A stretch of DNA of 44,799 nucleotides, taken from the NCBI GenBank assembly GCA_013911465.1, contig JACETE010000003.1, positions 1-44,799 on the forward strand, given 5' to 3'. The DNA comes from Candidatus Poseidoniales archaeon (GTDB lineage Archaea > Thermoplasmatota > Poseidoniia > Poseidoniales > Poseidoniaceae). Position numbers and translations under genes: made by a program. Under the pieces are notes generated by a model, which was given only the letters and a program-made list of their open reading frames with translations, searched no databases and was not told where the DNA came from. Shown piece after piece: positions 4,492-25,035 of the stretch (its first letter is position 1; each line of letters begins with the position of its first letter).

Positions 4492-4615
4492 ACAAAACGG
4501 CACAATTTTTCAACCCCAAAAACGATATGCGCCGACGCATAATCAACCGATTGTTTAAATCCCCTCGATGTACGGTGTTCGACCTAAGGTCAATCTTGAC
4601 CGTCAGGGGATTGGG

Positions 4616-7600
4616 ATGTTTCTAAAAGCGTTGGAGATGGAGAACTTCAAATCATTCCGCGGGGAAGTCGTCATCCCTCTTGACCGAGGCTTCTCGGCAA
4701 TCACTGGTCCAAACGGCTCAGGGAAATCCAATTGTGGTGATGCAATACAGTTCGTTTTAGGTCCTAAATCGACTCGAACAATCCGTGCTCAGAACACAAA
4801 GCAACTCATGTTTAACGGGGCTGAAGGCTACAAACCTGCCCGCAATTGCACCGTTACACTTGTGTTTGGAAATCCAGTGCTGTCGAACGGTCGTCGCCGA
4901 CTGCCTATTGAAAACGACGAGGTTCGAATGACTCGATCCATTCGTCTAACTGCTTCGGATAATGTAGTATCTGCCTATTTGCTTGATGGGGAAGAATCAT
5001 CTCAAAAGTCATTCCATCGTCTATTGAATGCAGCCAATGCTCGACCTGACGGGTACAATATCGTCCTTCAAGGAGATGTGACAGGACTTGCAAGAATGAC
5101 ACCCATTGAACGAAGAAAGGTTCTGGATGGTGTTGCCGGAGTCACATCATATGACGATGAAATCCGAAAAGCAAAGAAGCAAAAGGACAGCGTTGATTCC
5201 TATATCGAACGAATTGGCATGTTGCAAGAAGAGCAACAAGTCCGCCTTAAGGAACTTGAACAAGAACGTAAGGTTGCAATGAAAGCGCAATCCGTCGCCG
5301 ATGAACTCACAACCTCACGTTCACAACGTTACCAAGCAATGTTTGCAAGCCTTGGGATGGAATTGGAACACCAAATTGCGGAGCAATTACGCTTTGCTGA
5401 GGAAGCCTCAACTCTTGAAGACGAGGTCAAAGCAGGAAGCAGGAAGTTGGTTGAACTGGATGACCGCATTGGTGAAATCCAGAAGCAAATCGATGCGCTT
5501 CTTGGCGAAGAAGGTGACGGCCTGTCCCAAGCAATACATGATTTACGGGTTCAAATCGACCGAGACAAGGATCGCATTGAGGACTCATTGCAATCCAACA
5601 TTGACGATGCTGAAGAGCGTGAACAGGTCCTGGAACGCTATCAAGAAGCAGAATCGGCTTTGAGCGCACTCCTTGAAGAAGCCAAAACAAGTCATGCTCA
5701 GATGGAAGAAGCCCAGCGTATGCTGGATGAAGCACAATCTGAAGAAGACAAGGTCCGTTCACTTCTCGAAGGGTCTGGAAAGAATCATGCTGAACTCAAT
5801 CGGGCGCTCAGTGAAGCAATCAGCACACTTGAACTTGCAAAGAAAGGTGTCGCATCAGCCCAATCTGAAGTTGACCGAACAGCAGCCCAAGCAGAACTGG
5901 TTGAATCGAACTTATCCAAAGCCCAAGAACGTGCAGAAGAATCGCGTCTTGAACTTGAAGAAAAAGAAGCCGAATTCAAAGAAGCATCGGGTGGAAAGAA
6001 AATCGATCGCTCATCATTGACCAAGAACATTCTCGAGGCAGAACGAGCTGAATCTCGTCTTCTTGAGGAAGCAGGCGCTGTAGAACGAAAGATGACTGAA
6101 ACAGAACGTCAACTTCGTTCTGCTCGTGCTGAATTGGAGAACAAATCGAATTCCAAAGGTATGGCAGGTGGGGCAGCAGCAGTCTTGGGCGCTCGAGACC
6201 GTGGTGAAATCAGAGGCATCATTGGAACTATTGCAGAATTGTGTGCTCCGATTGATTCTGAACATGAAACAGCGCTCGCGACTGCATTTGGTGGCGCAAT
6301 GACCTCGGTTGTCGTTGATTCGGATGAGGTTGCTGCTGAAGCGATTCGTTGGTTGGCCCAACGAAAGGCCGGAAGGGCAACCTTCCTTCCACTCAACAAA
6401 CTCGCAACAAGCCGTGCAGGTGGAAAGGCCATGATGGTTGCTCGGAAGCCTGGTGTCATTGGTTTTGCATACGAATTACTGGAGTATGACCCTCGAATTG
6501 ATACTGCAATTAAATTTGCACTTCGTAACACGCTGATTGTACAAAACATGGACATTGCCCGGCAGAATATGGGTGGAGTGCGACTTGTTACAATGCGTGG
6601 TGATGTCACCGAAGCAGGGGGTGCAATGGTTGGAGGTTCGCGTCAACGAATGTCCGTTAGCTTTGGTGGAGGAATCGCTGGAGCGAAGGAAGTTGAGAGA
6701 TTAAGTTCTGAAATTGAACGCCTTCGTTTGATGTCCGATACGGTTGCAGCTGCACTCGCAGATGTGCGTACGGAGCAGAAAAACCTCCGGCAGCAGATCA
6801 ATGAACTGGCCAATGAAGAAGGTGCAATACGAAGGGAAACCTTACGAGCAGAGGTTGCAACGTTCAAGAAAACACATTCAACAAATATTGGAACGGTCCA
6901 GTCCTTGAAGCAAGATCTTCAACGTCTCGAAGGTATGGCAAGTGAACAACTGGAATCACTCGACGAAGCAGAGTCAAAGGTTGCTGATGCAGAAATTCTC
7001 CGAAACTCTGCTCAAACTGCACTGGAAGATGCCAGCCCTCAGCATCTCAAGGATCGCTTGCATGAATGTACTGTGAAGCGAACTCAAGCAGAAGGAATTC
7101 GTTCGAATGCCGAGGTGTCAATCCGCTCAATCGACGAACGTAAGTCATTGCTTACATCCTCTGTATCCGGCGAAAAACAACGCCTCAAGCAAATCGATGC
7201 TGACATTGCTGAACGTACTGAGAATGCAACTCTGTTGAAGACAAGCGTCGATCAAAATGGGGCGATTCTTGCTGAGAAAGAAGCCGAAAGAGCACAGTAT
7301 CTCGAAGAAAACAAAGGTCTTGAGGATGAACGTCTCGAGTTGGTTGAAGAACGAGCAAGTCTGAACTCAACCCTTACTCAAAAAGCCACTCAGGCCCGCA
7401 GTCATCGAAATCTATCCACGGAATTGGAGCGGACTATCCAAGCAAAACGCAAGGAATTGTTCGATGTTGAGATGGAAATGGGTGCAGTCGGAATAGAAGC
7501 TGCTGAAGAAGGAATCGTCCTCGATTCTGTTGCAGAAATCGATCGTCGAATCCGTCGACTTGAACGACGTCTTGAAGAATTTGGAGCCGTCAATATGCGG

Positions 7601-8488
7601 GCTATCGAGCAATATGATGCAGTTGAGCAACGTCTTGAAGAAATGGAAGGTGATTTCAAGAAGTTACAAGACCGAAAGAAGCATCTTATCGATGTTGCAG
7701 AACGACTTGAAGAGCAACGTAAGGTGCGCCTCATTGATGTCCTTGAGAAGGTGAATGAGAATTTCAAGAAGGTCTACAAGTCAGTTAGCAATGGTGGTCG
7801 TGGAGAACTCTACCTTGAGAACAAAGAGGAGCCGTTCAAGGGTGGGCTCGAATTATGGGCTCAGCCAAAAGGCAAGTCTTCGAATGTTACTCGCCACCAA
7901 CTCTCTGGTGGTGAGCAATCCGTTGCTGCTCTTGCCCTCATCTTCGCCATTCAAGATTACGACCCAAGTCCGTTCTATTACTTCGATGAAGTCGATCAGA
8001 ACCTTGACAGCGTGAATGCAGAATGCATCGCAAAGATGTGCAGAGAACGCAGTAAGGCTGCACAATTCATCATGGTGACATTGCGAAAAGTTTCACTTCA
8101 ACTCGCTGACCATCACATCGGAATTACTCACGGTGGAGATGGATGCAGTCGTCGCATCATCGACTTCGACCAGGAGCAAGCCATCGCTCTAGGTGAGCAA
8201 GCTCTCAAAGAAGCTGAATCGGCCGCTGCAAAGAATGCCCAGCGTGCAAAGGAGGAACAAGAAACCCTTGCTGAAATGCCTCTTGTTCCTGAAGCATTGC
8301 CTGCGCCAAGAAGCCTCGGTGGTTTGCTGAAGCATATGCAAGATGATGAAAGCATTGCTTCCCTTGCAGAGCGGACTGCTGAAACCAATGAAGATATTGA
8401 GGAGCGTTCAACTCTTGCTGAAGCAATTTCCGAACTTGAAGCCGAGGAACAAATCGATGTAGAAGACGCTATCGAACTTGATGAGTGA
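4616..8488 (+). CDS. smc: Chromosome segregation protein SMC
   Basis: MFLKALEMENFKSF start, Walker A GPNGSGKSN, Q-loop IVLQGDV, coiled coils, hinge GRATFLPL and RLVTMRGD...GGAMVGG, signature LSGGEQ, Walker B YYFDEVD. Start refined to ATG 4616. Confidence 0.96.
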   Translation: MFLKALEMENFKSFRGEVVIPLDRGFSAITGPNGSGKSNCGDAIQFVLGPKSTRTIRAQNTKQLMFNGAEGYKPARNCTVTLVFGNPVLSNGRRRLPIENDEVRMTRSIRLTASDNVVSAYLLDGEESSQKSFHRLLNAANARPDGYNIVLQGDVTGLARMTPIERRKVLDGVAGVTSYDDEIRKAKKQKDSVDSYIERIGMLQEEQQVRLKELEQERKVAMKAQSVADELTTSRSQRYQAMFASLGMELEHQIAEQLRFAEEASTLEDEVKAGSRKLVELDDRIGEIQKQIDALLGEEGDGLSQAIHDLRVQIDRDKDRIEDSLQSNIDDAEEREQVLERYQEAESALSALLEEAKTSHAQMEEAQRMLDEAQSEEDKVRSLLEGSGKNHAELNRALSEAISTLELAKKGVASAQSEVDRTAAQAELVESNLSKAQERAEESRLELEEKEAEFKEASGGKKIDRSSLTKNILEAERAESRLLEEAGAVERKMTETERQLRSARAELENKSNSKGMAGGAAAVLGARDRGEIRGIIGTIAELCAPIDSEHETALATAFGGAMTSVVVDSDEVAAEAIRWLAQRKAGRATFLPLNKLATSRAGGKAMMVARKPGVIGFAYELLEYDPRIDTAIKFALRNTLIVQNMDIARQNMGGVRLVTMRGDVTEAGGAMVGGSRQRMSVSFGGGIAGAKEVERLSSEIERLRLMSDTVAAALADVRTEQKNLRQQINELANEEGAIRRETLRAEVATFKKTHSTNIGTVQSLKQDLQRLEGMASEQLESLDEAESKVADAEILRNSAQTALEDASPQHLKDRLHECTVKRTQAEGIRSNAEVSIRSIDERKSLLTSSVSGEKQRLKQIDADIAERTENATLLKTSVDQNGAILAEKEAERAQYLEENKGLEDERLELVEERASLNSTLTQKATQARSHRNLSTELERTIQAKRKELFDVEMEMGAVGIEAAEEGIVLDSVAEIDRRIRRLERRLEEFGAVNMRAIEQYDAVEQRLEEMEGDFKKLQDRKKHLIDVAERLEEQRKVRLIDVLEKVNENFKKVYKSVSNGGRGELYLENKEEPFKGGLELWAQPKGKSSNVTRHQLSGGEQSVAALALIFAIQDYDPSPFYYFDEVDQNLDSVNAECIAKMCRERSKAAQFIMVTLRKVSLQLADHHIGITHGGDGCSRRIIDFDQEQAIALGEQALKEAESAAAKNAQRAKEEQETLAEMPLVPEALPAPRSLGGLLKHMQDDESIASLAERTAETNEDIEERSTLAEAISELEAEEQIDVEDAIELDE

Positions 8489-9679: not shown

Positions 9680-10279
9680 ATGTCTGAACTTGCACTAGAA
9701 ACACTCCTCGAAGCCACACTTTTTGGTTCAGGTAAATCACTCGCAGTCAAGGAACTTTCCGAGGCACTTGGATACGAGGAAGAAGAAATTTCAGAAGCAC
9801 TTGCTTCGCTCCAAGGGACGTTAAAGCGGCGTAGAGGCGGTGCTTTACGCATTGTAGAGATTGGGGGGAAATGGGCTATGGAAGTCCGTTCTGATGTTGC
9901 AGATCATCTCCCAAAGGAAACGAAAACCGAAATGCCCAAGAAATTGCTCAAGGCTGCTGCTCTGATTGCATATCATCAACCAATGCCACAATCAAGACTC
10001 GTTGAATTGCTAGGCCAGAAAGCTTACGATTACGTACGTGAATTATCGCAACATGGTATGATTATGCGCCGACGTGATGGAAACACGAGGCGCTTGACCA
10101 CCACAAGACGATTTTCAGAAGCATTTGGGTGTCCTCATACTGATCTTCGAAAGGTACGGAAATGGTTCAGGGAGCAGGTCACTGAGGCTGGTCTCTTTGA
10201 TGGAATGGAGTCTGAAGCGTTGAAAGATGTTGGCGAGGATGGGCTCATTCAAGCCACATTGCCAATTGAAGAAGAGTGA
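9680..10279 (+). CDS. scpB: Kite subunit, segregation and condensation protein B
   Basis: LEATLF, AALIAYHQP...S.L, TT..F...FG motifs of ScpB. Operon with smc and scpA. Confidence 0.9.
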   Translation: MSELALETLLEATLFGSGKSLAVKELSEALGYEEEEISEALASLQGTLKRRRGGALRIVEIGGKWAMEVRSDVADHLPKETKTEMPKKLLKAAALIAYHQPMPQSRLVELLGQKAYDYVRELSQHGMIMRRRDGNTRRLTTTRRFSEAFGCPHTDLRKVRKWFREQVTEAGLFDGMESEALKDVGEDGLIQATLPIEEE

Positions 10280-11575
10280 TTACTTACGAATCTCTTCTAG
10301 AATTTCAGCAACTCTTGTCTGGGTCTTGTGCCCTTCTTCGGAGATTAACAATTGTGCGACCTTCTCAATCTCATCACCAACGGCGCCTGCGCTTACGGCC
10401 ATGTTCTTCGCATGAAGGCGCATATGGCCTTTCTGGATGCCACTGGTGGCAAGGGCTCGCAGGGCACCTAGATTCTGGGCTAGTCCTGCTGCAGCCATCA
10501 CAGAGGCTAATTCCTGGGCTGATTCTACGCCGAGTATCTCGAGATTCGTCCGAGCCACTGGATGGACCTTGGATGCGCCTCCTACGATGCCTACAGCCAT
10601 CGGTGTTTCGATGGTTCCAACCAAATTGCCCTCAGAGTCTTTTTCCCAGTGCGTAATCGAACCATATCGGCCTTGATGGTGAGCGACGTAAGCGTGACAT
10701 CCTGCTTCAACAGCCCTCCAATCTTGGCCACAGGCCACTGCGACTGCAGAAATACCGTTCATGACTCCTTTGTTGTGCGTAGCGGCCCTGTAGGCATCTG
10801 CCATTGCAAAATGATGTGCTTGAAGAATGCCTTCAATGATGGATGCGCCTTCATCGTGATCGCCACTATTGCTCATTTCTTTAGGTGTGAAGGTTGCAGA
10901 AACTCGTGCGAGTCGTTGTGTGGCTAAATTCGAGAGGATTCTCAACAATGAGCGTCCTTGACTGATGGTTTCAAGTTCAGGTGCGAGAAGTTCAGCCATG
11001 GTATTGACTGCATTTGCCCCCATAGCATCTCTACAATCGACATGGATGTGGACGATAAGCATCGGCCCAGAAAGAGTCTCTATTGACCGAGTTGAGATGT
11101 TCTTACACCCTCCACCCAGACGAATCATAGTGGATGGAAGGCTGTTTGCCAGAGCCATGAGTTTAGTTTTTTCTTCCTCAATACGGACCATCGCATGATC
11201 ATGGTCAATCACATCAAGAAGTTGAATTTGCGCAATCATCATCGGTTTGTCGTTGTTGGATACAAATCCTCCGTTTGCATGGCAACGTTTGGCCATGTTG
11301 GATGCAGCAGCAACAACACTTGATTCTTCGAGGCAAAATGGCACGACGTAATGCTTTCCGTCGATGATGAAATTGGTTGCAACACCAACAGGTAGGGACA
11401 TTGTTCCGATGACATTCTCGATCATGCGATCGGCAGCAGCATCGTCCAACTCTCCATTTGCTGCTAGAGCGGCAACCTGCTCTTCAGTAAGTCCAGCAAG
11501 CTCTGCGATCCTTTGCCTGCGTTCTTCGACATCAAGTTTGTAGAAGCCTTTGAGGCGGCTATTGTCCACTGGCAT
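10280..11575 (-). CDS. mvaA: HMG-CoA reductase, class II (bacterial/degradative type)
   Basis: MIENVIG, EESSVVAAAS, DAMGANAVN, ATHNKGVMNG, GQDWRAVEAG, GIQKGHMRLHA. Start refined to ATG 11575 (GAGGAGA SD upstream). Confidence 0.93.
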   Translation of the reverse strand: MPVDNSRLKGFYKLDVEERRQRIAELAGLTEEQVAALAANGELDDAAADRMIENVIGTMSLPVGVATNFIIDGKHYVVPFCLEESSVVAAASNMAKRCHANGGFVSNNDKPMMIAQIQLLDVIDHDHAMVRIEEEKTKLMALANSLPSTMIRLGGGCKNISTRSIETLSGPMLIVHIHVDCRDAMGANAVNTMAELLAPELETISQGRSLLRILSNLATQRLARVSATFTPKEMSNSGDHDEGASIIEGILQAHHFAMADAYRAATHNKGVMNGISAVAVACGQDWRAVEAGCHAYVAHHQGRYGSITHWEKDSEGNLVGTIETPMAVGIVGGASKVHPVARTNLEILGVESAQELASVMAAAGLAQNLGALRALATSGIQKGHMRLHAKNMAVSAGAVGDEIEKVAQLLISEEGHKTQTRVAEILEEIRK

Positions 11576-11630
11576 GGTGTTCTCCTCGTTCCTTGCGAAG
11601 AGAGCAAGATGCATGAACCAATCGGAAGAA

Positions 11631-11723
11631 ATTAACGGGTTTAACGCTTAAATTAACGCGTTATATTTGCGTTAATCATGCGTTAATACGGCTAATTTAC
11701 TTGCTCCCGCATCCCGATTAACG
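11631..11723. repeat. Array of short ATTAACGC-like direct and inverted repeats in a divergent intergenic region (probable protein-binding sites)
   Basis: TTAACG at 11632, 11641, 11653 and 11718. GCGTTAAT at 11669 and 11680, degenerate CGGCTAAT at 11689. Core perfect IR ATTAACGC-N9-GCGTTAAT at 11652-11676. Confidence 0.8.
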
Positions 11724-11792
11724 TTTCATAACACGTCTGTTCAAGCCTCCTTTCTTGTGAAATGTCATATACTTGGTTGAAGTTGCTCGGGC

Positions 11793-13511
11793 ATGCATGG
11801 AAATACCATTGATTTCGGTTTCCCTACATTGAGTAAAGATCCATTCTCATCAAGTCCACTCGACAAAGATGAGTTTGATCTCTTGGTTGGACGCCATATG
11901 TTGTTTGATGAACTTGAGCGAAAGATTACCTTCAAATCCGCAGACCGCATCCTTTTGGTTGGCGAATTCGGGTCCGGAAAGACTTCCTTCATGCAATGCC
12001 TAGGTTCCCGGACCAATCTGCATATCAATCTGGACAGGATTTCTATTTCAGAACCTGGAATCGAGTTGCTAAAAGAGATGTATGCTCAGTTGATTGATGC
12101 CTCTCCTCCCAATGATTATCAGAAACTGAGTCGTGACTTGCAACGAATGTTGCATGATTCACGACAAATGTTACCGCTCATCACCGTTGATGCTGAAATG
12201 GCTAATTTTTCATCACTGGAAGCCTGCCTTCGCTCCTCTCTTCCGTTTTTCGAGCGTCTGCCCGTGTTGTTTGTGATTGCCATCAATCCTCAACAGCAAT
12301 CGCTCATTTCAGAACAATTGTTACAACGATTTGAAGTGAGGACGATGAAAAGTTTGGACGTTGATGGTGTGAAGGCGCTTGTTGAACGACGAATTGCAAA
12401 AGCCTCCACTCAACCTTATGCGATGGCAACAGAAGATGCACATCGATTACTTCAGCTCAGTCAAAGTGGCCAACCCGGTCATCTTATCCGAACACTTCGG
12501 AATGTAGTTTCAGGACAATTCGTAGCTCCAAGTCCAGCACCTCCTCCTTTGGAGGAATTGAACCCTGAACCTCAATCATTGGTTGAGGTCCGACCTGCGC
12601 CAATTGAAACAGATGTTCATGTTCCCGATGACGAGGTTGTTGAAGACAATCCCGAAGATGAATCCGGTCTTGAAGAATGGGAGGAGACTCCTGGAATGAC
12701 GCAAGCATCAGGTTTTGATCTCGACTTCGGAATCCTTGACAAACCAGTGGAAGAGCCTACTGTTGAAGTGCCTCAAGAAGTTGAGATCGAAGAAGAGGGT
12801 GAAGAATCTGATGATTCCTATGTAACAGAAGATAGCCTTCCATTCGTTGGAGTTTTTGGTGGTTTAAGAAACAGGAGAAAAATAGTCAACAATGACCTTG
12901 ATGCTTCCTTGGATGCTCAGTTTAAGCCCACTGAAAAGGGGACTGCGTTCTGGAGTGCAGAAAAGAACGCTCATGTTGATGAACCGAGGGAGATTATCGA
13001 TGATGAGGTCAAGGATGTAATCTCAGAGCCTGAGGAATTTATCGATCATGAAGTTGAACCAATCGATTTGCAAAATATTGGTTTTCCTGAGGAAGCTTCA
13101 TTGGACTCAAATGCAATTGAAACGTTTACTCGTCTCTTAGCTCAAGTTCTCCACCCGGCTTCGGGTCGATTGAATGGAGAAGAGGACCTCATCGAGCGAT
13201 TACAGGCACTCTCTCGGCCCAAATTTACTGAAAAGGAAGAACATATTCTCAGCGTTGCAGTCCTGAGTTCTCTAACAGCCTCGGAATCGATCGTTGTGGC
13301 GGAGGCGAAGGGAAGAAACATTTCTCCTTCCGACAAGGCACTACTTTCTCGATTATCGATAAAGCGTGCACGTCTTTCTCAGATTTGCAACCGATTGCAT
13401 AAAGCAGGAATCCTTCATGTTCGAATGGTGGGACGATCTCGCATGTTCGGGCTAACAAGAACTGCGCTGGCACAATTGATTGCTTGGGGCATCGTTGGAG
13501 GTGATGAGTGA
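11793..13511 (+). CDS. P-loop (AAA+/STAND-like) ATPase with acidic linker and C-terminal winged-helix domain
   Basis: DPF..P...LVGR N-terminal motif, Walker A GEFGSGKT, degenerate Walker B (LITVDAE), GQP motif, long Glu/Asp/Pro-rich linker, C-terminal RLSIKRARLSQICNRLHKAGILHVRMVGRSRMFGLT (wHTH-like). Confidence 0.7.
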   Translation: MHGNTIDFGFPTLSKDPFSSSPLDKDEFDLLVGRHMLFDELERKITFKSADRILLVGEFGSGKTSFMQCLGSRTNLHINLDRISISEPGIELLKEMYAQLIDASPPNDYQKLSRDLQRMLHDSRQMLPLITVDAEMANFSSLEACLRSSLPFFERLPVLFVIAINPQQQSLISEQLLQRFEVRTMKSLDVDGVKALVERRIAKASTQPYAMATEDAHRLLQLSQSGQPGHLIRTLRNVVSGQFVAPSPAPPPLEELNPEPQSLVEVRPAPIETDVHVPDDEVVEDNPEDESGLEEWEETPGMTQASGFDLDFGILDKPVEEPTVEVPQEVEIEEEGEESDDSYVTEDSLPFVGVFGGLRNRRKIVNNDLDASLDAQFKPTEKGTAFWSAEKNAHVDEPREIIDDEVKDVISEPEEFIDHEVEPIDLQNIGFPEEASLDSNAIETFTRLLAQVLHPASGRLNGEEDLIERLQALSRPKFTEKEEHILSVAVLSSLTASESIVVAEAKGRNISPSDKALLSRLSIKRARLSQICNRLHKAGILHVRMVGRSRMFGLTRTALAQLIAWGIVGGDE

Positions 13512-14560: not shown

Positions 14561-14843
14561 TGAAACTCTAACAGTAGATCGTGTCAAGCACTATCTTTCC
14601 ATCACTGAAAAGGCACGCTCGAAGGCAACATCCCTTGCCTCAACGGCTGAAGAGGAATCCATGGTCACTACGTTACTCTCAATGGCTGATGACTATGCAA
14701 GTGATGCGCAGTATTTCCTCAAACAAGGTGATCTCATTCGAGCTTTCGGAGCGATCAACTATGCACACGCTTGGATTGATGCAGGAGTAAAGTTACGCTT
14801 ACTCGACGGACACGGTGATGACGTTCTCTTCACGCTGCCGTGA
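14541..14843 (+). CDS. DUF357 family archaeal protein
   Basis: MA.DY.SDA.YF...GD...AFGAINYAHAWIDAG...L pattern typical of DUF357. Start uncertain (GTG 14541 or CTG 14550); the 14409 start in the ORF track overlaps the previous gene and is unlikely. Confidence 0.8.
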   Translation: MRGLNPDETLTVDRVKHYLSITEKARSKATSLASTAEEESMVTTLLSMADDYASDAQYFLKQGDLIRAFGAINYAHAWIDAGVKLRLLDGHGDDVLFTLP

Positions 14844-15234
14844 ATGCGTTCATTTGCTTTGATTCTAAACTATTTACCAATTCTCGTACGGATTCAATAT
14901 CATCCAAAATCTCTTTTGCTCTCTTTTTTGCAAGATTTACGAATGGTTGAATGGATTGCTCAAGACTCATTCTTAATCTGTAAATGTGTGCAGGGCGTCC
15001 ACGTGATGACTCTGATTTTGGAGAGAAATGAACGAGATTCATCTCTCGAAGTTCTGAAATCGCCATACTCACATCAGGTTGTCGGATGTTGCAATAGTCT
15101 TGAAGATCCTTTGATGATGCCGCACCATGGTGATGCAAACAAAGGAGTACACTTGCTGTATTCTCATTCGCTCCCAATTGAATGAGTTTTTGTCGAAGTG
15201 AGAGTTGTATTGCATTCTTTGCTTCTGGCTGCAT
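14830..15234 (-). CDS. Euryarchaeal wHTH transcriptional regulator (COG4738/AF1396-like)
   Basis: IRQPDVSMAISELRE...RGRPAHIYRL matches the LRQPEVS.A...GRP...Y.L family pattern. Confidence 0.75.
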   Translation of the reverse strand: MQPEAKNAIQLSLRQKLIQLGANENTASVLLCLHHHGAASSKDLQDYCNIRQPDVSMAISELREMNLVHFSPKSESSRGRPAHIYRLRMSLEQSIQPFVNLAKKRAKEILDDIESVRELVNSLESKQMNAFTAA

Positions 15235-15263: not shown

Positions 15264-15320
15264 TAGCATCACCGACGTTTTATTGAGAATTATATATTTT
15301 ATTAATTTAGGAGAGAGAAA

Positions 15321-15341
15321 TTATTGTCAAACCGACAATAA
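15321..15341. promoter_or_regulatory. Perfect 8-bp inverted repeat (operator or terminator hairpin)
   Basis: TTATTGTC-AAACC-GACAATAA just downstream of the PIN gene stop and upstream of the regulator promoter. Confidence 0.45.
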
Positions 15342-17593: not shown

Positions 17594-18781
17594 TCATTTG
17601 CGTTTGAGTTTTCGTGCGACACGACCTTCAATTCGTGCAGCCACATCAACTGGGAGGGCATGTGGCATCGAAATATGGGTCGTTCTTCCCCGGCCCTCGC
17701 CAACGGTGTCAACTCGAGTGGCGATGATGCTCAATCCCTCGATTTGTTTGAGGAACTTCCAGACCGTAGTGTGACTTCGGGGTTTAACTTCGTATTCTTC
17801 ACAAATGACAGCATAAATTGATTCAACATCTTTGCTCGTCATGAATTCTGCTTTTCGTAAGCGACGACAGATGCCAAGCAAGACCAACATTGAATGTCCC
17901 GATAGTTCGTCGAGAACGTCCTCAGGCATGACTTGTGGAACCTCTCTCGCTTTGGTTTGAACATGCTCAGCCATGAGTTGCTTCATCCCTTCAGATTCGG
18001 CATGCTCCACAGCAGCTCCCAGCAATTCAATCACTTGTCGTGCATCACCCGAGGGTGCGGCTGAGGTTGCAATCAATTTCAAGATTTCATCATCCCATGA
18101 TTTTGGATTCAAGGCAGCCTCTGCACGTTGCTGAGCAATGGCCTGGAGACCTTTCATATCGTAAGGAGGGATTGGTAAATGATTGGTGTGCCCAAACCGA
18201 GAAATAACAGCGTTTTCAAGAACATCAAGAACTTGTTCCTGGCTGATGAGGATGAGGGAGAGTGTGCCACTACCTTCCTGATCTTCATCGATTCGAAGCA
18301 ATTGATAGATGAGATCATTCCCTGATTTGCGCAGTAAATGATCGACTTCATCCAAGACGATGATCAGATGTCGGCCGTTGTTTCTTAGCAATTTTCTGAG
18401 ACTGCTTAGCAACTCGCCCATTGAAAGCCCTCTGTCAGGATGGCCAGGATCCAATGACTGGACAATTCGTTGCGCTACACGAACATTGGTCGTCGCATTC
18501 CGACAATTGATGTGGACGCTTCTCAACGGTCGTTTGTTTCGGAGGTGGTGGCGTATATCCCGGCAAAAGGTGCGGGCAAGAAGCGTCTTCCCGCTTCCTA
18601 CTGGACCGGTAATGACCACGTTAGCGCTTCCATTTGGATGGGCAATGGAATGGAATTTCCCTGCAAGATTCTGCTGAATACTCTCTCGTCCTACCATCTC
18701 TTCTGGAATGTAGTCAAAGTCCAGAGGATCAGGATTCAGAAGGATGAATCCTGAACCAATTCGGTCGAGGTAGTCGCTCAT
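17594..18781 (-). CDS. cdc6: Orc1/Cdc6 family replication initiator
   Basis: LDFDYIPEEMVGRE, Walker A GPVGSGKT, HINC, Walker B IIVLDEVD, PPY, sensor GDAR, C-terminal wHTH GRGRTT. Start refined to ATG 18781. Confidence 0.93.
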   Translation of the reverse strand: MSDYLDRIGSGFILLNPDPLDFDYIPEEMVGRESIQQNLAGKFHSIAHPNGSANVVITGPVGSGKTLLARTFCRDIRHHLRNKRPLRSVHINCRNATTNVRVAQRIVQSLDPGHPDRGLSMGELLSSLRKLLRNNGRHLIIVLDEVDHLLRKSGNDLIYQLLRIDEDQEGSGTLSLILISQEQVLDVLENAVISRFGHTNHLPIPPYDMKGLQAIAQQRAEAALNPKSWDDEILKLIATSAAPSGDARQVIELLGAAVEHAESEGMKQLMAEHVQTKAREVPQVMPEDVLDELSGHSMLVLLGICRRLRKAEFMTSKDVESIYAVICEEYEVKPRSHTTVWKFLKQIEGLSIIATRVDTVGEGRGRTTHISMPHALPVDVAARIEGRVARKLKRK

Positions 18782-18849
18782 GTTGATTGCATCTTGATGC
18801 CAACCGTTCTTGAACACTCGCTCTTTCTCAGAGGAAAAAAGACCGAAGT

Positions 18850-19959
18850 TCAAGGAATCTCATCGAATTGATACCCAAGTTCCCATTTCTTCTCACCAAG
18901 AGCCACTTCAAGCTCAAACGGTGTAATGAGAGGTTTTGCATACTTTACAGCATCATCAATCGCTATTCTCGGGCAAGCCGTATTGACGAAAGCATCAACT
19001 GGATAGAAATCAATCAATTCCGGACCGACGTGCTCAAGGGCGAGAAGATATCCTTTCTTCCCATGCTTCTCAAGCAAACGCTTCATTCGAAGGGCGAGTG
19101 TTCTTCGCATCTGACCAGGTTTTTCACCGATCAAAATTCCAAACTTCTGTGCATCCATCGAGGACATAATCAAGCCGAATCGCTGGCGAAGGATTCGGTC
19201 AATTCGTTCGAACGACATTTCGATAGCATCACCAGAGTACGGATCAAGCATAGCCAGAGGCTTTCCCGTATGGAGGACAAGACCGATTGGATGAAAGTCA
19301 CCGCTTCCGAGGAAGAGGTAGTGTCCTATCGTGTCGTCATCGCCTGAATAGTTGCAACCAAGAACTTGGCCAGGGAACGTAAGACGAGCCCCGCCCATCG
19401 GTATTGTAACATCGAAACCTGCTTTTTCAAGTCGGTCATGGAACTGAGGCAAGAGGTGAAGATGTTGGATGCTTCCAACAAGGCCGAGTTTGGTATCCTT
19501 GAGTGGCGTCATCCTTCCTACTGCATCCATGAAACGCTCCTGTGCTTCCTCTTCGCTCATTTCAGGCGCAGTGGCTTGTTCGGCCATCCTATTCTTGGCG
19601 ATTTGAAGATGAGCATTGAGCATAGGGATGACCGGAGCGAGTTCTGGATCCCCGTCGTAGGTCACATCGATGAATTGTGTAGGCATCCCAGAATCGATGT
19701 TCATTTGTGAATGGCCCATGTGAGCCACAAGTTCAACTCCCATCATTTTCATCTTGTCGTGAACAAGATCGCATGCACCGTAACAAGGGTCTGCGGCGAG
19801 GACAACCTTGGCCCCTGAGCCAGATTCGATTTCATCCATCATTTCGAGGGCTTGCATCTTCAAACCTTCAGGGACTTGGAGTGCAACCAAACGATTGTCG
19901 TTCTTTTGAATCCGTTCAATTAATTCTTCCAATTGGAAATCGTGTCGGTCTAAATCCAT
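18850..19959 (-). CDS. dph2: Diphthamide biosynthesis enzyme Dph2
   Basis: LQVPEGLK, CYGACD, HMGHS, GQVLGCN, G.FHP, K.GQ, TACPRIAIDD (three Fe-S cysteines retained). Confidence 0.95.
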   Translation of the reverse strand: MDLDRHDFQLEELIERIQKNDNRLVALQVPEGLKMQALEMMDEIESGSGAKVVLAADPCYGACDLVHDKMKMMGVELVAHMGHSQMNIDSGMPTQFIDVTYDGDPELAPVIPMLNAHLQIAKNRMAEQATAPEMSEEEAQERFMDAVGRMTPLKDTKLGLVGSIQHLHLLPQFHDRLEKAGFDVTIPMGGARLTFPGQVLGCNYSGDDDTIGHYLFLGSGDFHPIGLVLHTGKPLAMLDPYSGDAIEMSFERIDRILRQRFGLIMSSMDAQKFGILIGEKPGQMRRTLALRMKRLLEKHGKKGYLLALEHVGPELIDFYPVDAFVNTACPRIAIDDAVKYAKPLITPFELEVALGEKKWELGYQFDEIP

Positions 19960-24588: not shown

Positions 24589-25035
24589 ATGTCTTGGGAC
24601 GAAAGCGATGTACGGTTGGTTCCTGTTGAGTGGCTCAAAGCACATGAAGAAATCAAACAGAAGAACATGGAGAAATTGCTCCAAATGACGCTCAAGTGGG
24701 ATGGCTTTACCAAACCATTGATCGCAGACAAAGCAACTGGAACCATTCTCGACGGGCATCATCGATATGCAGTGGCCAAACGCCTAGAACTTGCCCGAAT
24801 TCCTGTCGTATGCATTGATTACCTCCATGATGAATCAGTAGAGTTGGAACTTTGGCCGGCTTCTCAATTGGACTCTATTTCAAAACAGGAAGTCATTGAT
24901 ATGGCTCTTTCATCAAAATTGTATCCGCCAAAGACGACACGACATCGAATCTCGGACCACTTGCCGCCGATTCATGTTTCATTGCATCGGCTTTCGTTGC
25001 TTACTCCGAGTCAGCCTGGCGAGACCGAATCGTAG
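24589..25035 (+). CDS. ParB/Srx-fold protein, SerK/SbnI-like (short form)
   Basis: LKAHEE, KPLI, ILDGHHRY, DY, W.P, SKQEV, YPPKTTRH. Start refined to ATG 24589 to avoid overlap with the divergent gene. Confidence 0.75.
   Translation: MSWDESDVRLVPVEWLKAHEEIKQKNMEKLLQMTLKWDGFTKPLIADKATGTILDGHHRYAVAKRLELARIPVVCIDYLHDESVELELWPASQLDSISKQEVIDMALSSKLYPPKTTRHRISDHLPPIHVSLHRLSLLTPSQPGETES

Follow-up and report, generated by a model that had tools for sequence, protein, structure and literature searches.

Among described systems, the plasmid centromeres parC of R1, bound by ParR, and tubC of pBtoxis, bound by TubR, come closest to the element treated here. Both consist of short repeats spaced by about 11 bp, which are arranged in two clusters and located in or beside the promoter of the operon coding for the binding protein. 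TubR is a winged-helix protein, and binding at parC and tubC is cooperative and autoregulatory, the autoregulation being a by-product. Our present results describe an array of the same general build in the chromosome of a Candidatus Poseidoniales archaeon. It was analyzed within a stretch of 44,799 nucleotides (GenBank assembly GCA_013911465.1, contig JACETE010000003.1, positions 1 to 44,799), referred to below as the window. The array occupies the gap between the divergent gene of 3-hydroxy-3-methylglutaryl-CoA (HMG-CoA) reductase, hmgA, and a gene for an ATPase-like protein with a winged helix-turn-helix (wHTH) domain, designated P0001. We propose that it is probably a cooperative operator array for P0001, a Cdc6-like/wHTH protein, situated in the promoter of the protein's own gene and possibly also affecting hmgA.

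Other known systems share parts of this architecture. Archaeal origins with origin recognition boxes (ORB and mini-ORB) and the Escherichia coli origin oriC with its DnaA boxes present opposed sets of helically spaced boxes, in single copy and beside a gene for an AAA+/wHTH protein, as is the case here. Repressors of the ArsR/SmtB family bind inverted repeats overlapping promoters. Poseidoniales (Marine Group II) themselves are uncultured, and few archaea of the surface ocean are more abundant. To our knowledge, their gene regulation and chromosome biology are almost unexplored, and full-text literature searches returned no paper describing the locus. In Saccharolobus islandicus, the Orc1/Cdc6 paralogue Orc1-2 is reported to act as a transcription regulator (PMC6061795, PMC9738581).

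The features of the array and of its surroundings are given below as positions in the window; statements on conservation in the genus rest on an alignment of 24 same-genus loci with full upstream flank.

11618 to 11628, no strand: CCAATCGGAAG, between hmgA and the first box; contains no box and is invariant in the genus
11631 to 11638, plus strand: distal forward box F1, ATTAACGG; its TAACG core is kept in at least 90% of the 24 loci
11640 to 11647, plus strand: distal forward box F2, TTTAACGC; identified in the same alignment of 24 loci
11652 to 11659, plus strand: distal forward box F3, ATTAACGC; opens the order-wide core pattern
11654 to 11663, no strand: palindrome TAACGCGTTA, formed by F3 and R1; occurs once in the assembly and is invariant in the genus
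11658 to 11663: reverse box R1, GCGTTA; overlaps F3
11669 to 11676, minus strand: distal reverse box R2 (GCGTTAAT on the plus strand); identified in the same-genus alignment and in the core pattern
11680 to 11687, minus strand: distal reverse box R3 (GCGTTAAT on the plus strand), 11 bp after R2
11689 to 11696, no strand: GGCTAATT, a supposed degenerate copy; its columns are not conserved in the 24 loci
11717 to 11724, plus strand: proximal box P1, ATTAACGT; GATTAACGT is conserved in the genus
11727 to 11735, plus strand: proximal box P2, CATAACACG, 10 bp after P1; its TAACA core at 11729-11733 is conserved in the genus
11757 to 11772, plus strand: element resembling a transcription factor B recognition element (BRE) and TATA box, GTGAAATGTCATATAC; near-invariant in the genus, 21 bp before the ATG at 11793

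A preliminary description, made from the sequence of the window, had reported forward copies at 11631, 11640, 11652 and 11717, and all of them were found at these positions. It had claimed a spacing of 9-12 bp, and the measured distances between box starts are 9, 12 and 11 bp. The reverse copies at 11669 and 11680 are in place as well, but the degenerate one at 11689 is not conserved, and GGCTAATT is probably not part of the element. Two boxes, R1 and P2, had been missed. The centre of symmetry suggested near 11664 falls in the middle of a 9-bp spacer (11660-11668, N9 in the patterns below) that is shared order-wide, and the genus has a second symmetry point at 11658/59. The invariant CCAATCGGAAG may be part of the promoter, leader or initiator region of hmgA.

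Two other interpretations of the array were rejected. A hairpin or structured RNA is contradicted by the restriction of mirror complementarity to the boxes, with non-complementary spacers, and no Rfam match was found in the window. A central TATA box is contradicted by the spacer 11660-11668, whose A/T-richness in the window's genus is not shared by other genera (GTTAGGGGT, GTTAGCCAT).

The array is real, unique in its genome and well outside what chance would be expected to produce. The segment 11632-11723 contains 6 of the window's 15 TTAACG words, and 6 of the 24 one-mismatch matches to ATTAACGC in the window also fall within these 92 bp. The whole assembly (G000; 1,423,440 bp in 99 contigs) carries 360 TTAACG words, six of which are those of the array, and no other cluster reaches five words per 100 bp; by a Poisson estimate, about 2e-8 clusters of such size are expected per genome. 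Two smaller clusters (on C35 and C78) lie inside long open reading frames (ORFs), the palindrome CGTTAACG being counted twice in each. The complete 1.6-Mb genome of a relative, G039, similarly contains a single cluster with at least three TAACGC words per 100 bp, at 614,391-614,444. In G000 and G039 the palindrome, the phased pairs and the dyads are essentially confined to the locus; no regulon is apparent in these two genomes, and this favours the operator proposed here. Single TTAACGC words elsewhere in G000 (15 non-coding, 46 coding) are attributed to composition, and one other convergent box pair occurs in that assembly, at C6:8838.

The array is also conserved across the order, a question which the preliminary description had referred to an alignment of orthologous gaps. 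In the 24 same-genus loci the array is kept: boxes are preserved in at least 90% while spacers vary freely, and from position -165 to the ATPase ATG there is not a single indel. In this set the identity of the ATPase-wHTH protein goes down to 46%, that of HMG-CoA reductase being at least 79%. Such conserved boxes between free spacers are a phylogenetic footprint of the kind expected for an operator array. According to source names, the close relatives carrying the protein belong to Candidatus Poseidoniaceae.

The core shared between families is TAACGC-N9-GCGTTA-N5-GCGTTA. Of 401 order genomes, 144 have it in exact form, mostly at one site each, and none has the reversed control pattern. With at most one mismatch the core was found in 46 of 63 order genomes, as well as in G000, and in none of 8 sister-order genomes and none of 229 other genomes of the same phylum. 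Matches on the two strands overlap with an 11-bp offset in the second large family, whose element is the symmetric pattern TAACGC-N5-TAACGC-N9-GCGTTA-N5-GCGTTA. Position and orientation are fixed. All 30 loci retrieved by the DNA pattern alone have the array between the HMG-CoA reductase and ATPase genes, with the side of the two reverse boxes facing the latter. When 30 loci were retrieved via the protein instead, the reductase gene adjoined the ATPase gene in 29, the exception having no upstream flank. Nine of nine further genomes, both third-family ones included, carry box clusters upstream of the ATPase-wHTH orthologue.

As a separate observation, the proximal boxes of the second family (L145-L150; G039 C1:614,520-614,580) have the variant form GCGTGA-N5-GCGTGA and abut a TATA-like element, ATATTA. 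These boxes thus stand at the BRE position of the presumed promoter of the ATPase gene in that family.

The array also keeps a helical register to the ATPase gene, as determined in 52 loci of the window's family. P1 follows R3 at a distance of 38 bp in 33 loci and of 48-49 bp in 6; the other 13 escaped the search pattern. For F3 and the TATA-like element, 31 loci give 109-111 bp and 8 give 121-122 bp, 12 loci being unmatched and one false match discarded. In most loci the ATPase ATG comes 139-141 or 150-151 bp after the array; where 110 bp was obtained, the start had been mis-called inside the promoter. Array-to-promoter distances shift only by about one helical turn though the intervening sequence is free. 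On the other side, the start of hmgA is anywhere between 46 and 133 bp from the array in the family, and an estimate from coordinates gives about 170-200 bp for G039. Because the register is fixed on one side and the distance variable on the other, the array appears stereospecifically tied to the ATPase promoter region and not to hmgA. Such a register is what an operator array would be expected to show, with GTGAAATGTCATATAC as the putative core promoter of the ATPase-wHTH gene.

These distances also bear on the possibility of a different reader. The boxes could be operators for a transcription factor encoded away from the locus, such as one regulating hmgA and isoprenoid lipid synthesis, the ATPase-wHTH gene being only a co-regulated neighbour. 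This would agree with the constant divergent position of hmgA (29/30 and 30/30 loci) and with forward boxes that abut the hmgA leader/promoter region in the window's genus. Nevertheless we regard it as unlikely, as the array moves relative to hmgA and not relative to the ATPase promoter, the array and the ATPase-wHTH protein share their taxonomic range, and no second target site was found in G000 or G039. Another wHTH protein encoded nearby, an MreA-like regulator, has no match in G039 at E <1e-8; this absence speaks against such a factor and in favour of P0001.

Boxes and promoter elements take up the whole intergenic gap, which measures 178-217 bp. RNA-library runs contained at most 8% of sampled words, and nine short contigs match the window. 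They cover hmgA (10800-11494) and the 5' end of the ATPase gene, where one contig is 100% identical over 11757-11913; a contig spanning the array comes from a library whose RNA status is only guessed. Contigs of this sort cannot give transcription starts.

P0001 has a distribution equal to that of the array. It was matched in 41 of 41 order genomes searched, and the family profile matched none of the 5 sister-order genomes searched, which are 91-97% complete. Protein and array share one taxonomic boundary, which suggests that the DNA-binding protein encoded next to the boxes is their partner. In Pfam, P0001 matches only AAA_22, with 24.9 bits against a cut-off of 27. Sub-threshold matches in 20 orthologues comprise AAA_16 (20), AAA_22 (19), Cdc6_C (17) and MarR_2 (17); Cdc6_C stays below threshold in all of its 17, with a best E of 0.014. 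As neither the Cdc6 lid nor Cdc6_C reaches its threshold, Pfam does not identify the family as Orc1/Cdc6. Direct comparison of the family profile with the Cdc6 encoded in the window gave 75% in hhalign (E 2.5e-5, 226 columns), covering the AAA base and lid.

When 1.84 billion representatives were searched with the profile, the family itself came out as 66 clusters at E <=1e-30. The next tier consists of giant multi-AAA proteins, matched in the P-loop only, and of proteins of about 400 amino acids with AAA_16/ATPase_2 (PF01637)/AAA_22/KAP and MarR-like wHTH domains. One cluster of the latter, from Bathyarchaeia, is named "Cdc6-like AAA superfamily ATPase" by JGI. Against a set of these shorter proteins, picked from matches of the same family profile, the N-terminal domain of P0001 scored 99.7% in hhalign (E 9e-27, 224 columns) and the C-terminal wHTH 97.6% (E 3.4e-12, 76 columns); both domains are homologous to those of the Cdc6-like AAA + wHTH proteins. 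Among solved structures, the wHTH matches the ArsR family (PDB IDs: 3f6v, E 5.9e-4, and 3pqj, E 1.2e-3). The profile of the N-terminal domain found there P-loop stretches only (midasin and others), a Cdc6 chain appearing at E 0.19.

Twenty residues of the wHTH are invariant across families, in parallel to the invariant TAACGC core of the boxes. The suggestion that the array is a loading platform for the ATPase-wHTH protein thus gains indirect support, from constant adjacency, from the same range and from the near-invariance of both wHTH and box core. The two domains are joined in Poseidoniales by an acidic, fast-evolving linker of about 200 amino acids with conserved short motifs (window 12540-13110, residues ~250-440). 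Those of the genus are W-E-x-T-P-G-M-T-E-A-S-G-F-D-L-D-F, L-P-F-x-G-x-F-G-G-L-R-x-R and G-T-A-F-W-S; of these, the two aligned sequences from the other family preserve only residues W296, F355, L358 and R361. The motifs look like docking sites for a partner, perhaps the WD40-like protein of the same putative operon.

The ATPase motifs themselves differ between families. Proteins of the window's family have Walker motifs GSGKT and DAE/DAD. In 5 of 5 orthologues of the second family (L026-L030) these read GSGRT and D-[YFH]-[PA], with loss of the Walker B glutamate, and the sensor-1 asparagine is replaced by threonine. ATP hydrolysis would consequently lie outside the conserved function of the protein. 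The second-family orthologues are probably pseudo-ATPases, which still possess the wHTH and the box array.

The operator that we propose would work as follows. Several copies of P0001 would bind the helically phased boxes cooperatively, occupying three forward boxes that face three reverse ones and the proximal pair in addition. The resulting stereospecific complex would couple physically to the BRE/TATA-like promoter of the ATPase gene and control transcription of the ATPase-wHTH/WD40-like operon. Integration of the array with the promoter of the ATPase gene implies that such an operon would be autoregulated. The complex might also modulate HMG-CoA reductase, because the forward boxes adjoin or overlie the divergent hmgA promoter region. 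The identity of the binder, its cooperativity, the sign of the regulation and any effect on hmgA are what we infer from the architecture of the locus.

Several points weigh against this proposal. The identical RNA-library contig, 157 nt long, starts at 11757, upstream of the TATA-like element, and if it is truly RNA, it conflicts with the placement of the promoter. The box motif does not vary, and therefore gives no covariation test of the reader protein. The Walker A lysine and Walker B glutamate are both gone in the five other-family orthologues, which leaves no general ATP-driven step. Finally, single-copy opposed phased arrays beside an initiator-like gene are typical of origins and centromeres too.

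Comparison with origins and centromeres depends on the neighbouring genes, which are the following.

4568 to 8488: smc, upstream of the gap
9680 to 10279: scpB, upstream of the gap and preceded by a probable scpA
10280 to 11575, minus strand: hmgA, HMG-CoA reductase, divergent from the ATPase gene; the ORF extends to 11614, with the probable start at ATG 11575
11793 to 13511, plus strand: gene of the ATPase-wHTH protein P0001, 572 amino acids, predicted as Cdc6-like AAA domain, acidic linker and ArsR-like winged helix
13508 to 14560, plus strand: gene of P0002, 350 amino acids, without Pfam family; its start overlaps the stop of the ATPase gene
14830 to 15234: gene of the MreA-like wHTH regulator
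17594 to 18853, minus strand: cdc6 (cdc6-1), 5.9 kb downstream

The beginning of hmgA, MPVDNSRLKGFY with MPV(D/E)NSRLKGFY, is conserved order-wide, and GAGGAG precedes the ATG at 11575 by 7 nt; this ATG is probably the true start. P0002 seems to be co-operonic with the ATPase gene, which it adjoins in 26 of 30 loci (two of them of the other family); the other four may lack the downstream flank. Its assignment as WD40-like is a weak lead.

The proximity to smc-scpAB (1.4 kb) and cdc6 (5.9 kb) stated in the preliminary description was confirmed. Neither side of cdc6 offers non-coding DNA: the S6e gene is found 47 nt downstream of it, and its start is overlapped by a diphthamide-synthesis gene. 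The order smc-scpA-scpB-hmgA-array-ATPase is collinear in both large families. Nearness to smc-scpAB and cdc6 holds in both families as well, but it is not specific, because array and genes belong to one collinear stretch of about 20 kb with more than 15 genes.

Two further features of the window were noticed. A 148-amino-acid ORF (24589-25035, plus strand) with a DGHHR motif occupies an apparent 470-bp gap, 13 kb from the array. It has a sub-threshold match to the ParB N-terminal domain (E 0.0026, 18.2 bits, cut-off 26.3) and is ParB/Srx-like, without HTH. Among all 40-mers of the window, the one at 15288-15327 has the highest A/T content (85%); it belongs to the 115 bp that separate the MreA-like gene from a PIN-domain gene, and is probably promoter DNA.

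The array might alternatively be the chromosomal replication origin, or one of several, with ORB- or DnaA-box-like boxes read by the Cdc6-like protein or by Cdc6-1. It is present in single copy per genome, consists of two opposed sets of phased boxes and adjoins the Cdc6-like AAA + wHTH gene, whose hhalign match to the window's Cdc6 is given above. In 5 of 5 genomes cdc6-1 is located 4-7 kb away, tightly flanked by the S6e and diphthamide-synthesis genes. The GC content over 70 bp is 31%, compared to 47% for the window, but this low value stems from the boxes themselves. An A/T-rich unwinding element is missing: the opposed boxes are 9 bp apart, the spacer between them is not A/T-rich in other genera, and the gap of 178-217 bp holds no other A/T tract. 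The spacing relative to the ATPase promoter changes in steps of about a helical turn, P0001 falls below the Pfam thresholds for Cdc6 domains, and its Walker residues are lost in the other family.

A strand-bias switch was not observed either. In G039, with the array at 614 kb, extremes are located elsewhere (cumulative gene orientation at 186 and 941 kb and, for the strand-corrected skews at third codon positions, AT3 at 264 and 988 kb and GC3 at 449 and 1311 kb), and no skew or orientation extreme occurs within 165 kb of the array. In 400 kb centred on the array of a second relative, G198, which belongs to the window's family, the orientation bias is steady and shows no switch. A skew inversion at the locus, named as a check in the preliminary description, was seen in neither. 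The skew evidence is weak, because the three measures disagree (extremes lie up to 260 kb apart), and raw nucleotide skews of G039 are noisy. More canonical-looking origin features exist near cdc6-2, as judged tentatively by an ORB consensus. Taken together, an origin at the array is distinctly unlikely.

A repeat-based origin search in G039 gave only a tentative ORB-like cluster near cdc6-2. Several stretches came to light in this connection. Near cdc6-2 of G039, the segments C1:518,345-518,560 and C1:524,589-524,993 are non-coding and have origin-like features. The sole cluster of three GGAAATG words in that genome, which includes GTGGAAATGAAAC, lies 5 kb from cdc6-2, and its likeness to ORB is tentative. 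Near cdc6-2 of G000, contig C25:2480-2760 is non-coding too and contains an 80%-A/T tract between C- and G-strings. Elsewhere in G039, 3.4 kb without ORFs (C1:1,060,792-1,064,217) carry about 20 copies of GATCGTTA; this stretch may be a repeat array, and Rfam found nothing in it at gathering thresholds.

A role in segregation is the remaining alternative. The array would then be a centromere-like or SMC-loading site, at which the Cdc6-like wHTH protein and its WD40-like partner mark the chromosome or load Smc-ScpAB, and autoregulation would be a by-product. Phased repeats in the promoter of the binder's operon match plasmid centromeres, and a repeat array is indeed found upstream here. Yet the operon encodes no motor of ParA, ParM or TubZ type, only an AAA-like/wHTH protein and a protein without Pfam family, and the array is a single site in G000 and G039, with no sign of spreading sites. 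As for SMC loading, the collinear order of smc, scpA, scpB, hmgA, array and ATPase gene in both large families would fit; however, proximity to smc is unspecific in so large a block, and hmgA separates smc-scpAB from the array. The manner in which archaea load Smc-ScpAB remains open, and in Thermococcus kodakarensis the ParB homologue has turned out to be a serine kinase (PMC11840125). A centromere or loading site is very improbable in our view, and the earlier nomination of the array as oriC or SMC-loading element finds no support, given the missing unwinding element and skew switch, the promoter register and the non-specific neighbourhood.

In a broader form, the array, the Cdc6-like/wHTH protein and the WD40-like partner could constitute a chromosome-marking complex specific to Poseidoniales, either a non-canonical origin set by a diverged initiator or a centromere or Smc-ScpAB loading site in a lineage that lacks ParB-parS, with autoregulation as a secondary property. 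We consider this rather doubtful; a dual structural role is conceivable because the architecture most resembles parC and tubC arrays.

The single-copy element and its candidate binder, a member of an uncharacterized family, are both order-wide, so that their pairing can be tested in vitro without culture. If the operator proposed here is real, it would be a first order-specific regulatory module, located beside the gene of the key enzyme of archaeal lipid synthesis, and an example of an initiator-like AAA+/wHTH protein employed as local regulator. A chromosome-marking complex, if that were the case, would bear on how sites of replication, segregation or SMC loading are designated on archaeal chromosomes.

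Contrary to parC and tubC, the Poseidoniales element is chromosomal, order-wide and devoid of a cytomotive NTPase; binder and P-loop are fused in one chain, and the boxes face each other instead of pointing one way. It differs from ORB origins in the lack of an unwinding element and of a strand-bias switch, in boxes unrelated to the ORB core and in its promoter register. The archaeal Cdc6-like AAA + wHTH proteins of about 400 amino acids are homologous to P0001 in both domains, to which Poseidoniales add the acidic linker of about 200 amino acids and, in one family, degenerate Walker motifs; we know of no function assigned to that wider family. ArsR/SmtB repressors provide the best solved-structure matches to the C-terminal domain, but they are small dimers that stand alone and recognize one dyad operator, whereas the wHTH of P0001 shares its chain with an AAA-like domain and is confronted with 6-8 boxes. 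A functional parallel to the proposed operator is Orc1-2, reported as a case in which an AAA+ protein of initiator lineage with a winged helix serves promoter control and not origin firing. Orc1-2 is described as a bona fide Orc1/Cdc6 protein with a genome-wide regulon, whereas P0001 fails the Pfam thresholds for Cdc6, carries an acidic insert of about 200 amino acids and apparently has a single target locus.

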